Positions 16,168 to 63,394 of a stretch of DNA of 64,000 nt are shown here, piece by piece (the first letter of the stretch is position 1; each line of letters begins with the position of its first letter). Origin of the DNA: Octopus vulgaris (taxonomy: Eukaryota); NCBI GenBank assembly GCA_951406725.2, contig OX597827.1, positions 28,954,001-29,018,000 of the forward strand, in the 5' to 3' direction. Position numbers and translations under genes: made by a program. Under the pieces are notes generated by a model. That model did no database searches. It was not told where the DNA came from and saw only the letters and a program-made list of their open reading frames with translations.

Positions 16168-17490
16168 AGAAGAAATGAGGTACTCAGAAGATCGGATGGT
16201 TTATATTTACAGATATTTATTTGCATGTTACATTTTTTATATATATATCATATCACTTAGATCATTAGCGCTTTCTCCCAATCTAGTGGGGTTTTCAAAT
16301 CAAACTAAGTTCCTGTGTGAGGAGATTTGACCATTTTATAGAGTTTTGTAGTGGTGGGGAGGAATATAAGACAGTACAAGAGGGTGATGGATGAGGAGAA
16401 AGTGAGAGAGAGAACATGTGTGTGTGTGTGTGCGTGTGTGTGTGTGCGTGTGTGTGTGTGTGTTTTTGTATCTGGGATGAGTGCTAAAGAGAAAGAGGGG
16501 AAGTGAGAGTGAAGAAGAAGAAAATAATTTTTTTGGTCTGCTGGACAGAATATTGACTCCAAGGAAAAAATAGAAAGAATTTCAGTTTTGACTACTTCAC
16601 AGTGTCACTGTGTGTGTGGTGGCGGGGAGGCAGGCCATAAATTATATTTCCTTTTGTCATTGTGAGAAGAGTGTGTGTGTGTTTAATGGTCAAATGCTTT
16701 TTGGGGTTTAAGAATTCTTTCCACTTTTTTGGGGTTTAAGAATTCTTTCCACATGATAGTTTTGTGGAGGTATGTGTGTGTGTCTGTGTGTGTGTCCGTG
16801 TGTGTGTGTGTGTGTGTGTGTGTGTGTGTGTGTGTGTGTGTGTGCGCGTGTGTGGGTGTCTGTGAGTTTGGAGAAGGGAAGAGAGAAAAAAGAGGGTAAG
16901 GGGAAAAATTGTGTTGATATTTATACCACTATATATATATATACATGCTTATACATGAAATATTAGAAAAAAATAACATCTTTTATCGATTCAAAATGAG
17001 CAATTAAATTACACCATCTTGAAAGTTGCATATCATAGGAAAGTTAAAATTAAAATGACAGTTAAAAAGGAAAGATTAAGTAAATTACAAAAATAATATA
17101 ATGTATATAACAGGTAATATATATATATATACACAAACACACACACACACACACACACACACACACACACACACACATACATATATATATATATATATAT
17201 ATATATATACACATATACTAAATGTTCTACTATATTATGTTGTAAATCGAAAGATTTGTCCTTCAATGTATGATGAGTAAAATTTCAGCCATTTAATTTG
17301 GGGGAGAACTTAGCTATGAAATATTTTTCCACTAGAATGGGAGAAAGCGCTAATGATCTAAGTGATATGATATATATATATAAAAAAATGTAATATACAA
17401 ATAAATATCTGTAAATATAAACCATCCGATCTTCTGAGTACCTCATTTCTTCTAATATATAATACCTGTACATCATCTCCAAACCTTCCA
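16168..17490. mobile_element. Fold-back element in (TA)n with ~122-bp terminal inverted arms, probably PLE-derived
   Basis: 16168-16289 is the reverse complement of 17329-17453. The arms contain GAAA-gcgc-TA (HHR 3' half). Microsatellite-rich interior; extra 3' extension at 17454-17490. Confidence 0.65.
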
Positions 17491-18550
17491 ATATATATAT
17501 ATATTTCTATCAATCTATATATCTATTAATCTATCTATTTATGTATCTGTCTATCTATCTATATATCTATCTATTTATGTATATGTCTATTTATCTGTCT
17601 ATCTATCTTTCTATCTATCTATCTGTCTGTCTGTCTGTTTGTCTCCCTGTCTGTCTATCTTTACTTTTGTTTATCTATCTATCGATCTATATATCTATCT
17701 ATTTATGTATTTATTTATCTTTGTATATATCTTTCTCCTTCTCGTCCTCTCTCTTTTTGCATATCTAACTCTCTCTCTCCATCTATCTATCTATCTATTT
17801 ATCCATCTATCTACGAATGTTTCTACATCAGTCTCTCATTCAATGCCCAAGTAACCAAGGCGAATTACAGGCACTGACAATTTCACTTTCTTTCCTGTCA
17901 TAATTTCAAGAAAATAGTCGAACTAAATACACCCTTTTGAAGCAATACATCAAAAGCAAAGCATTCAAGGCGTAACATGAGAAATCTCAACAGAGCATTG
18001 GCAACCTGTCTAATGAAAGTAGACTTGCTGTTTGTAGATCGTTAATATTGTGTATAGAAATTAAATGAGTTAAAACCTGACGAGTGCTTTGGTTTATTAA
18101 ATGTTTCTTTTATATCATTACTTATTCCAGGACTGAAACACCAGGCCATGCGCTGGTATTTTATATTGAAAAAATATGAATTCGAAAATATTTCATTTTC
18201 AGCTAAAGATTTTAGCGATTTCACGTGATGAAAGAAGACATCACGTGTTTTCACAGACTGTTAAAAAACTAAACTAAACTAGAATAAAATAAAGGTAATA
18301 TAAACCTAACCTACCCATCTACCCAACAAAATCCCTGAATCAAAATTTAGATATAGTATTCCCTGTTGTATGTGATAAACATAAAGCGTTCTTGACATGA
18401 CAGAAACTTCATTTAAAACTTTCTTTTATGAATAGGTATAAAAGAGTTCTGAGTAATAGTCGTAGAAACCATTCATTTTAATATTTTATTCTTTCAAACT
18501 GTTGGAAAGAAATATAAATAACAAAAACGATAATCATCAAAAAGCCGAAA

Positions 18551-18722
18551 TAATAATAATAATAATAATAATAATAATAATAATAATAATAATAATAATA
18601 ATAATAATAATAATAATAATAATAATAATAATAATTGTAATAATAATAATAATAATAATAATAATAATAATAATAATAATAATAATAATAATGATAATAA
18701 TAAAGAAATAATAATAATAATG
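18551..18722. repeat. (TAA)n; similar arrays at 19341-19455, 20760-20834 and 56497-56610
   Basis: Direct reading. Confidence 0.95.
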
Positions 18723-61181: not shown

Positions 61182-61520
61182 TTAGAGTATGTTTAGTTGT
61201 GGTCTGTATTTTTGAATAAGATTACTTTCCTTATTTATTCGTGTTTGGTCTGTGGTGTTGTCCGAGCATTGGTATAGTGGGAAGACTAAGAATTTGGGGG
61301 ACTTATTGTGTGCACAAAGGTCTAAGTGTCCACTTAGTGGTATCTGTCTTGTGGAGGGGTCCCTCAGTTGTTGTCGGTGAACTGTCATTCTTTCTCTGAG
61401 GGTAAGGCTCGTTTGCCCTATGTAGTCTTCGTGGCATCCTTCACACCTTATGACGTAGAGTAAATTTTTTGATGCGCACGTGAAATTATTTTTTATGATG
61501 AATGTGTGTCCCGAGTGGAC
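61182..61520 (-). pseudogene. PLE GIY-YIG endonuclease domain, open but 5'-truncated
   Basis: Extending the ORF upstream gives FTCASKNLLYVIRCEGCHEDYIGQTSLTLRERMTVHRQQ..PLSGH..R..KE..I.KYRPQLN*, with LLY/YIG, CxxC, R, H, E and N motifs. Confidence 0.9.
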
Positions 61521-63394
61521 ACACTGTGTGCGTGTGTGTGTGTATGTGTGTGTGTGTGTGTGTGTGTGTGAGCATTGTATACGTGTGTATGTATTTACAT
61601 GTGTATTTGTTTTTATATATATATATATATATATATATATGTGAGTGTTTTGTGTGTATATGCATGGTATGTATGTATATGTGAGTACATTGTTTGTGTG
61701 TGTGTGCGGTATGTAGAGATATATTTGAGTGTGTACGCTATAGGTTTGTAATTTGTGTGTGTGGGTGTGTGTGTGAATTTTTTATATATATATGTATGTG
61801 TATGTGTGTGAAAAAATATATGTATGTGCATGTATGTATGTATGTATATGTATATATATATATATATATATATATATGTATATATATATGTGTGTGTGTA
61901 TATTTATTTGCATGTTTATGCGTGTATAAACATGTGCATTATTTGCATGCGCATTGTGTATATGTATATTGTATGTATGTGTATTGTATATGTATGTGTA
62001 CAATTAAGTGTATATATGTGTGTGTATGTGTGCATTGTATATATGTATATTGTAGGTGTGCCATATGTGCATGAATACATGTATATGCAGTGCGTGTATA
62101 TATATGTATGCATTGTGTATGTATGTTATATGTGTGTGTATTTATATATATTATATGTATGCGCACGTGTATGTGTATGCATTGTATGTATGTATATTGT
62201 GTGTATATGTGGTATATCTATGTATGTGTATGTAAACACTATTTATATGTATACATGTATATATGTATATGCATTGTCTATATATATATATATTATATGT
62301 ATGTATTGCGTACGTATATTGCATGCATATATTGTGTATGTGTATTATATACATGCTGTATTTGTATATTGTATGTGTATATATATATGCTAGGTGTATT
62401 TGTGCGATATTTATATTATGTATGGATGTGTGCGTGTGTTGTGTGTGTGTGTGTGTGTGTGTGTGTTGTGTGTGTATGTGTGTTATATATATATGTGTGT
62501 GTATATTATATATAAATACATGTTATATTTGTGTGTTGTGTGTATATATTATATATGTGGGTGCGTTGTGTGTGTGTGTGTGTTCTGTGTGTGTGTTGAT
62601 GTTGTTGTGTGTGTGTGTGTGTGTGTGTGTATATATGTGTGTGACAAACAGACGCTGCTTGACCAGCAGGCATACTAACCTCCTGATAACCCCAAAACCA
62701 TTGATGCTTGAAGGGGAGTATACACCACACTGGGTACAACCTTTTTTCTCTCAATTCAACCTTTCTGCTAAAACAAACAGGTTAGTAACAACATATTCTC
62801 GCCTTCAACTTAAAATATTCTGAGATGTATAAAAGATCCATTTTAATTTTTGCTGTCAATAGATTGTATATATATACCAAAGGCTGTATATATATACATG
62901 TAATGTGACAATTTGCGACAACCAATAATTAACGCAACCAAATTTCCAATAATATATTTGTTTTATCCTTTTCTGCCAATTTTTCCAAATATTCTCATCA
63001 TACTATTGAACTTCTCTGTTACCAAACTATATTTATACATGTAATGTGACAATTTTGTATAAAAAAACATTTTTGAATTCATAATATCCAATGTGACAAT
63101 TATGTAAAAAACTTTTTTGAATGCATAATATTCAATGTGACAATTATGTAAAAAACTTTTTTGAACCCATATTATTCAATGATACTTTTAATGTTACTTT
63201 TGACAATCTTTTACCAAAGAGTGAAACCGCTTAAGTAAATAAACATCGTTTAAATTGCATTTTCAAACCTTTTTTCTTATATAATCCCACTCGTGCGATA
63301 CCCCACAACTCAACTTTTATATATATATATATATATATATATATATATATATATAGATAGAGAGAGAGAGAGAGAGAGTGAGAGAGAGAGAGAG

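Follow-up and report, generated by a model that had tools for sequence, protein, structure and literature searches.

We examined a 64,000-nucleotide stretch of the Octopus vulgaris genome (contig OX597827.1, positions 28,954,001 to 29,018,000 of the forward strand; hereafter the window) in which seven fold-back insertions, each made of two arms in inverted orientation, occur at a density of 7 in 47 kb. They are called E16, E24, E34, E47, E48, E58 and E59 after positions 16168, 24447, 34263, 46973, 48004, 58719 and 59011, respectively. Comparison of the window with itself, together with arm-by-arm alignment, verified an inverted pair at all 7 of the 7 sites reported by a first-pass annotation, with arms of 64-1,740 nucleotides (nt), identities ranging from ~80-84% (E48, the lowest) to 99.8% (E47) and a within-window E-value of 8e-19 for the least significant pair. 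The seven elements together cover 8,647 bases, or 13.5% of the window. The sequences had been described as unrelated at all seven sites, but E24 and E34 are 86-95% identical and form one family, so that six families are represented among the seven pairs. We consider it probable that each pair is a single insertion event of a Penelope-like element (PLE) enzyme, primed at both ends of one break. The features that bear on this reading are as follows, with the arm alignment given after each name.

E16 (arms 16168-16289 / 17329-17453, 95% identity, E = 3e-53)
16168..16289, minus strand: left arm, next to (TA)28; carries the 3' half of a hammerhead, with its palindromic stem III, at 16275-16266 and a possible degenerate U3-A8 core just upstream
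16290..17328, no strand: spacer; microsatellite-rich, assigned to neither arm, no other copy in the window
17329..17492, plus strand: right arm; arm to ~17454, then a one-sided extension of ~38 nt (presumed tail) before (TA)n
E24 (arms 24477-24835 / 24867-25185, 88.7% identity)
24438..24446 and 25183-25191, no strand: left and right copies of a 9-nt target-site duplication (TSD); the first 3 nt of the right copy also fit the element end
24447..24835, minus strand: left arm; a head resembling tRNA (24835-24770) is followed by (AAT)n, a minimal type I hammerhead that runs from core to cut at 24586-24551, and a 30-nt tail (24476-24447)
24836..24866, no strand: centre; 31-nt filler like a partial extra copy of the head
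24867..25185, plus strand: right arm; head identical to the left one (0/66 differences), hammerhead stem II deleted, no tail
E34 (arms 34308-34573 / 34653-34938, 85% identity)
34263..34626, minus strand: left arm; E24 family, nearly full head, same tail as E24
34653..34938, plus strand: right arm; of the head only the last 15-20 nt remain; the minimal hammerhead is intact (34845-34880); there is no tail, and a TSD was not seen
E47 (arms 47075-47489 / 47551-47965, 414/415 positions match)
46972..47491, minus strand: left arm; ~520 nt, or 1.06 monomers of a 491-nt hammerhead repeat; abuts (TA)n
47492..47965, plus strand: right arm; 30 nt are duplicated in tandem at the centre (47492-47551); the arm runs directly into (TA)n, 103 nt short of the left arm
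E48 (arms ~48004-48096 / 48111-48199, 80-84% identity, E = 8e-19)
48005..48096, minus strand: left arm; 5' end within the hammerhead; abuts the (TA)n common to E47
48111..48335, plus strand: right arm; arm to ~48203, 5' end within the hammerhead; the ~130 nt to the next (TA)n may be tail or host DNA
E58 (arms 58718-58781 / 58835-58897, 98% identity, E = 3e-26)
58718..58781, minus strand: left arm; abuts (TA)n; weak polarity
58835..58979, plus strand: right arm; arm to 58897, then ~80 nt before the (TA)16 common to E59
E59 (1,725 matches, 13 mismatches, 99.3% identity)
59011..61520, minus strand: long arm; 5'-truncated PLE with the endonuclease end and a ~2.2-kb microsatellite-rich 3' region; abuts (TA)16
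61182..61517, minus strand: C-terminal endonuclease of the GIY-YIG type, bearing CCHH-type residues (26.4 bits against PF01541, cut-off 22.6; domain at 61517-61185)
61522..63316, plus strand: inverted arm; copy of 60824-59005 (3' region only) plus a 33-nt extension 63284-63316 (presumed tail) before (TA)n

Shared architecture of the fold-backs

The 3' ends of both arms had been said to face outward. This polarity is firm in four elements, where it was read from an open reading frame (ORF; E59) or from a complete hammerhead ribozyme (E24, E34 and E47); it is partial in E16 and E48, where a hammerhead 3' half only is available, and weak in E58. A hammerhead descriptor returned 3 matches with an exact core and palindromic stem III, all within elements (E24-left, E34-right and E47-left), and none in any of 10 shuffles. 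Halves of the motif, defined by GAAA, a palindromic stem III and the cleavage triplet, occur in 56 of 1,966 130-nt strands of the window (2.8%). Palindromic stem III is present wherever a half is readable, and the predicted cut site is crossed by all 11 of the 11 arms examined. One-mismatch hammerhead matches at 47630(+)/47410(-) and a non-palindromic match at 832 were discounted as probably fortuitous.

The arms do end at unequal 3' points, although these are set by defined one-sided tails rather than being random: ~30 nt in E24 (the same tail at E34), 33 nt in E59, ~38 nt in E16 and 103 nt in E47, with possible tails of ~80 nt at E58 and ~130 nt at E48, two sites at which the extra bases might instead belong to the host. 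An element origin of the tail is evidenced for E24/E34 and E47, presumed for E16 and E59, and uncertain for E48 and E58. As first proposed, most of the elements sit in (TA)n, with tracts flanking 5 of the 7; 6 of the 14 outer ends abut (TA)n directly and 4 more reach it only if the intervening stretch is tail, the background being 4.9% of the window within 5 nt of (TA)6+. Two tracts each received serial insertions (E47/E48 and E58/E59). E24 is bounded by its 9-nt TSD and is therefore taken as one event, and E34 has neither TSD nor (TA)n.

Unequal 3' ends of this kind are the published PLE 'tail'. The signature described for PLE insertions comprises an inverted 5'-truncated copy, a one-sided 30-40-bp tail and a bias towards (TA)n (PMC8557442, Craig 2021), and a 9-bp TSD, a 31-bp tail and head-to-head as the most frequent arrangement are reported in PMC3846280 (Arkhipova 2013). 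Opposite-strand hammerhead pairs 100-700 bp apart have also been noted (PMC4209133). The architecture of the seven fold-backs is real and is this already known signature, and hence less new than the first-pass annotation implied.

A sensitive search for solo copies of the six families elsewhere in the window found none, leaving 14 of 14 arms paired; the seven elements were chosen as pairs, and the absence of solo copies was no selection criterion. For comparison, among the 30 copies of three ordinary families of interspersed repeats, 5 have a neighbour in inverted orientation at a distance of up to 1.1 kb. These families have 14, 7 and 9 copies (e.g. 9040-9263, 7612-7895 and 33612-33955), and one of them is often in direct tandems.

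The window also contains inverted repeats of other kinds. In contrast to the seven fold-backs, a 565-bp element at 9541-10105 has 230-nt inverted repeats (92%), equal ends and TA on both sides, typical of terminal inverted repeat (TIR) elements or miniature inverted-repeat transposable elements (MITEs); from its end motif we take it to be mariner-like. Palindromes made of microsatellite only lie at 4460-4930 and 44241-44376, with the patterns (TA)n-(GA)n-short spacer-(TC)n-(TA)n and (AC)n(AT)n(TG)n. Broken ORF remnants of the long interspersed nuclear element type were seen at 10646-13856 (-), 21443-23540 (+) and 57625-58074 (-), with RVT_1 confirmed only for 11828-12406 and the rest assigned by visual inspection. 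For the whole window, the 150 Rfam matches listed out of 249 comprised only sub-threshold miRNA-type hairpins, and ARAGORN found 0 tRNA genes in the window.

The element families

Judged by its coding sequence, E59 is a PLE, in agreement with the PLE origin first proposed for the fold-backs, which the hammerheads, tails and TSD support as well. The core of its endonuclease contains two Cys, and two His are also present, with the stop codon next; the domain is 81% identical to residues 662-772 (the last 111) of P0005, a 772-amino-acid (aa) protein composed of a reverse transcriptase (RT), a CX4CX2C linker and then a C-terminal endonuclease. A CX2-5CxxC linker precedes the endonuclease in the proteins P0005, P0009, P0011 and P0013; E59 is truncated before the linker, and a tblastn search for PLE RT in the window found only the endonuclease portion, E59 being cut at 61517. 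Because the homology to P0005 begins at the palindrome centre, we read E59 as a 5'-truncated copy. A degenerate hammerhead candidate lies near 59065 in the long arm. The two arms share out the element unequally, with the tail on the short arm and the 5' extension on the long arm, and neither is a subset of the other.

Elsewhere in the window, 4920-5880 (-) is likely an eighth PLE-derived insert, beside a long (TA)n, with a direct repeat (4920-5022 / 5734-5836, 98%), a hammerhead at 5880-5808 whose core departs from the motif at one position, and no inverted partner seen. Homology searches found no relatives of its ORF 5166-5558, and the RW motif in a 131-aa ORF piece of this insert presumably recalls the Hydra clade.

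E47 is a non-coding repeat, with no ORF of at least 90 aa listed. Its hammerhead (47296-47206) is a complete type I by descriptor and scores 22 bits (E = 0.0023) against Rfam Hammerhead_1, where the gathering threshold of 34 is not reached. The predicted fold of the monomer beats 40 shuffles (z -4.5). The arms are again split, with the 103-nt tail on the left arm and contiguous upstream sequence on the right arm, so that neither is a subset of the other. A palindromic AAAATTTT-type sequence lies at the centre.

We sampled the E47 family over 586 bases of E47 in 4 of 24 public contig runs, two of DNA type (X1 and X3) and two that are RNA by guess (X10 and X12). The two DNA-type runs gave 12,182 and 6,095 matching contigs, against 92 and 149 in the RNA-guess pair. 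In X1 contigs, go-back joints of 489 nt point to head-to-tail E47 units. Loose ends into (TA)n were found at 47075 in 14 contigs of X3 and 1 of X12, and at 47460 in 1 of X10; the latter is equivalent to the E47 left end one monomer away, so that the two ends lie 103 nt apart and are those used by E47's two arms. Since other copies run into (TA)n at the same two points, the unequal ends of E47 appear to be fixed family-wide. In the RNA-guess runs the bins 47495-47514 are without cover, which is evidence neither way. At nine positions (47179, 47186, 47206, 47228, 47272, 47289, 47427, 47430 and 47445) both arms carry the window letter where 65-99.8% of X1 depth differs, and these nine X1-minority variants are common in X12. 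Their sharing suggests one source lineage for both arms.

E24 and E34 belong to a family with a tRNA-like head followed by a minimal hammerhead. The head of E24-right gives a weak full-length match to the Rfam tRNA model (16.4 bits, E = 0.47, below the gathering threshold of 29), the E34 hammerhead has no match in Rfam, and the likeness of the E24/E34 heads to A and B boxes was judged by eye. The tail is common to both elements; the centres and right ends differ. The two heads of E24 are identical (0/66) while its bodies differ at 20/113 sites (17.7%), and private changes number 19/259 in bodies and 0/132 in heads (Fisher p 0.0006). E34-left has no such contrast between body and head (7/146 vs 3/66). 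In this one case the identical heads and diverged bodies hint at two templates, in that they could stem from a young insertion copied from two templates that had diverged, or else from replacement or conversion of the E24 centre. Body divergence among the four E24/E34 arms is 8-18%, which fits a star phylogeny and by itself does not distinguish one template from two. A 25-letter motif from the family's hammerhead, searched against contigs of metagenomes, viruses and prokaryotes, gave 0 matches. The centres of E47 (47486-47551) and E24 (24836-24866) each contain a short stretch copied a second time from the 5' end of the right arm, a 30-nt tandem duplication and a partial head, respectively, which suggests template jumps at the joint or later slippage.

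Proposed two-ended priming and its alternatives

We propose that a PLE endonuclease would cleave the two strands of a (TA)n or AT-rich target, and that the 3' ends so released would each serve as primer for reverse transcription of uncleaved element RNA, which may be supplied as two molecules or as a single multimeric or circular one. The two complementary DNAs (cDNAs) would begin at the element's two fixed internal start sites, which would give rise to the tail, each would stop at its own 5' point, and the ends would be joined centrally by template jumping or end-joining, with short fillers or re-copied 20-30-nt pieces. Each joined cDNA would then template the second strand of the other. The non-coding passengers, the 491-nt retrozyme-like repeat and the tRNA-headed family resembling a short interspersed nuclear element (SINE), likely use the same PLE enzymes, and the hammerhead would be a passenger rather than a coupling device. 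Outward 3' ends with a TSD outside them are the geometry expected if each target strand primes cDNA directly. Purified Poseidon PAc of Anolis is reported to cut and extend both strands in vitro with uncleaved RNA as template, from two internal start sites whose spacing is the tail, and the protein is predicted to be a dimer; the study does not settle what follows these steps (PMC11167929, Frangieh 2024). Priming at both ends of one break, as the first-pass annotation had suggested, thus gains support from the non-subset arms of E59 and E47, the family-wide (TA)n junctions of E47 and both-strand cutting in vitro, and is still an inferred event.

The alternative that survives best, and which we regard as possible though doubtful, is self-priming or snap-back, in which one template (antisense RNA or first cDNA) folds back and is copied, and the hairpin so formed is integrated, with the endonuclease trimming it, so that the insertion is PLE-made with single priming. 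Self-priming on an antisense template has been proposed for Adineta Penelope (PMC3846280), and would agree with the nine shared minority variants and 1/415 differing sites of the E47 arms, with the palindromic E47 centre and with the E34 short arm lying within the long arm. In E59 and E47, however, each arm has sequence that the other lacks, an outcome beyond simple fold-back copying unless the tails are removed afterwards. Of the two readings, two-ended priming is the more probable. Both E47 ends are family-wide target junctions, sense RNA was copied from both target strands in vitro (PMC11167929), and the identical heads and differing bodies of E24 are also at odds with a single folded template.

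Several points weigh against two-ended priming. Tail trimming at integration has been suggested (PMC8557442) and would weaken the argument from non-subset arms. The short arm is contained in the long arm in E34 and largely in E24 too, which fits fold-back copying. The shared rare variants of the E47 arms fit one molecule or one source locus, and one template suffices. None of the 7 joints listed for the E47 family is a strand change, the contigs being short and sensitivity low, and no listed contig spans the E47 centre. The tails at E16, E48, E58 and E59 are placed by position only, and although PLE ends are the likeliest reading of E16, E48 and E58, these three show no more than hammerhead halves. 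The Poseidon PAc of Anolis is of a different clade, and the accessible text of PMC11167929 reports neither fold-back products nor a two-template model.

The first-pass annotation had coupled the two primings through hammerhead dimers, with two RNAs paired by palindromic stem III and delivered to the two ends of one break. Such dimers are a proposed active form of the ribozyme (PMC4209133), palindromic stem III is found wherever a half is readable, and homology stops within the hammerhead in both E48 arms, E58-left and E16. The stops in E48 and E58-left leave slight room for the dimer, though stalling at the hairpin explains the E48 and E58 stops equally well. Hammerhead core mutants, with stem III unmutated, insert equally well in vitro (PMC11167929), and Naiads lack hammerheads while sharing the same structure (PMC8557442). 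Further, E24-right has lost stem II, and the centres of E24, E34, E47 and E59 lie far from the ribozyme. Since the published mutants insert and the arms run through the cut site, dimers are not needed, and we consider this coupling improbable.

E16, E48 and E58 could instead be TIRs of DNA transposons or MITEs in TA sites, or pairs of independent neighbouring insertions in one (TA)n hotspot. Their near-equal outer homology ends and TA flanks, the (TA)n tracts in the 1-kb spacer of E16, the serial insertions into one tract at E47/E48 and E58/E59 and the true TIR-type element at 9541-10105 would be in keeping with this. The hammerhead halves in the arms, at 2.8% chance per 130-nt strand, and the lack of solo copies in the window make it highly improbable even for these three. 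For E59, E47 and E24/E34 the TIR reading is ruled out by the GIY-YIG domain, the head-to-tail monomers, and the variable centres and ends, respectively; the fixed TIRs with constant ends that had been named as the contrary outcome are not what these elements have. Assembly or amplification chimeras would account for the near-identical arms of E47 and E59 (99.8% and 99.3%) and for the lack of a listed contig across the E47 centre, but with five pairs differing by 2-16% and with a TSD, shared tails and family-wide end points that chimeras would not be expected to have, we give them almost no credence.

Double-stranded RNA potential and comparison with known systems

Long double-stranded RNA (dsRNA) from the fold-backs, for which the first-pass annotation had envisaged a PLE-driven palindrome factory in a lineage of heavy A-to-I editing, would arise only by read-through transcription; helices of 23-272 bp are predicted in the read-through RNA of the six elements folded, and divergent transcription from the heads would give none. 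When the window was scored by a measure patterned after that of PMC5625713, 156 of 2,558 tiles (6.1%) had an inverted, near-perfect partner no more than 2 kb away; of these, 100 lie in the seven elements (80 in E59 and E47) and 45 in simple repeats outside them. The genome-wide value for Octopus bimaculoides is 0.44% (PMC5625713), so either the window is unusually rich or the present measure is laxer. In the same study octopus has the highest dsRNA potential, yet is omitted from the repeat analysis, where lizard Penelope is named as massively edited. If the host is indeed an octopus, the fold-backs are candidates for the source of this dsRNA excess.

No general A>G excess was seen in the two RNA-guess contig sets over the 586 bases of E47, with A>G and T>C changes numbering 4 and 3 in X10, 6 and 8 in X12, 8 and 6 in X1, and 6 and 5 in X3. 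A T>C change at 47277 (A>G on the hammerhead strand) accounts for 190/206 of depth in X10, 90/323 in X12, 1,100/1.5 million in X1 and 0 in X3; the position is unpaired in the predicted fold, and X10 and X12 come from different studies. It may represent adenosine-to-inosine editing or an expressed subfamily allele, and is a lead only. A tentative joint reading, which we regard as unlikely in its entirety, would have PLE enzymes of this lineage act as dimers that as a rule assemble every insertion from two RNAs, each primed on its own, and that have recruited both a SINE headed by an RNA polymerase III (Pol III) tRNA promoter and an oversized 491-nt retrozyme; the fold-backs would then be the main source of the octopus near-perfect dsRNA excess and non-coding hyper-editing, and ADAR editing would mark the expressed retrozyme, with 47277 as candidate site.

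How PLEs form tandem and inverted structures is described as an open question in PMC8557442, and the non-subset arms, the two fixed target-joined ends and the TSD offer concrete genomic tests of two-ended priming against self-priming. Our full-text literature search, with subscription papers, Repbase/Dfam and figures outside its scope, found no description of a tRNA-headed SINE with a PLE footprint and no two-template PLE model. The accessible text of PMC10886601 holds nothing on fold-back PLE passengers. For Octopus vulgaris, 31 Penelope-like families with recent activity are reported, along with 893 SINE families left unclassified (PMC13282606), and these may include the present ones. The tRNA-headed short repeat and the 491-base ribozyme repeat seem undescribed. 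The novelty is modest, consisting of non-autonomous passengers and a testable link to octopus hyper-editing rather than a new kind of system.

The fold-backs most resemble insertions of endonuclease-bearing PLEs (Penelope/Poseidon, Neptune, Nematis and Naiad), with which they share the head-to-head inverted 5'-truncated copy, the one-sided tail, the (TA)n targets, the optional 8-10-bp TSD and the hammerhead in the terminal repeat (PMC3846280, PMC8557442). They differ from the published insertions in their density of 7 in 47 kb, in being mostly non-coding passengers and in the 103-nt tail of E47 (published 30-40). E59 shares with Neptune/Nematis-type PLEs the C-terminal GIY-YIG with CCHH-type residues, and P0005 has the RT-linker-C-terminal endonuclease layout given for Neptune and Nematis (PMC8557442); unlike them, the truncated E59 is without RT and linker and has the ~2.2-kb microsatellite-rich 3' region. 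The hyper-edited repeats of PMC5625713, Penelope in Anolis and palindromic Harbinger in Xenopus, are self-complementary ADAR substrates, and the seven pairs are likewise self-complementary.

The Schistosoma Sm-alpha and Sj-alpha SINE-like hammerhead retroposons (PMC6765202) also have a Pol III-type head followed by a hammerhead, as in E24/E34, which differ in their minimal PLE-type hammerhead, (AAT)n spacer and head-to-head pairs with a PLE tail, and in forming no tandem arrays. Like the animal non-LTR (long terminal repeat) retrozymes (PMC7229834; bioRxiv 10.64898/2026.07.22.740005), E47 has a type I hammerhead and is non-coding, low in GC, structured, head-to-tail, very abundant and present in RNA-guess contigs. 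It has, however, a very long stem II, and its 491-nt unit is outside the range of ~170-400 nt given for those retrozymes (PMC7229834), for which reason we file it as retrozyme-like. Retrozymes were proposed as PLE passengers in PMC7229834, and the case was argued by phylogeny in bioRxiv 10.64898/2026.07.22.740005, in whose accessible text the word 'tail' is absent. Whereas these papers argue for PLE mobilisation from co-occurrence and phylogeny, E47 bears the PLE insertion signature directly, and the PLE footprint on both the retrozyme-like and the tRNA-headed repeats is direct evidence of PLE cross-mobilisation.

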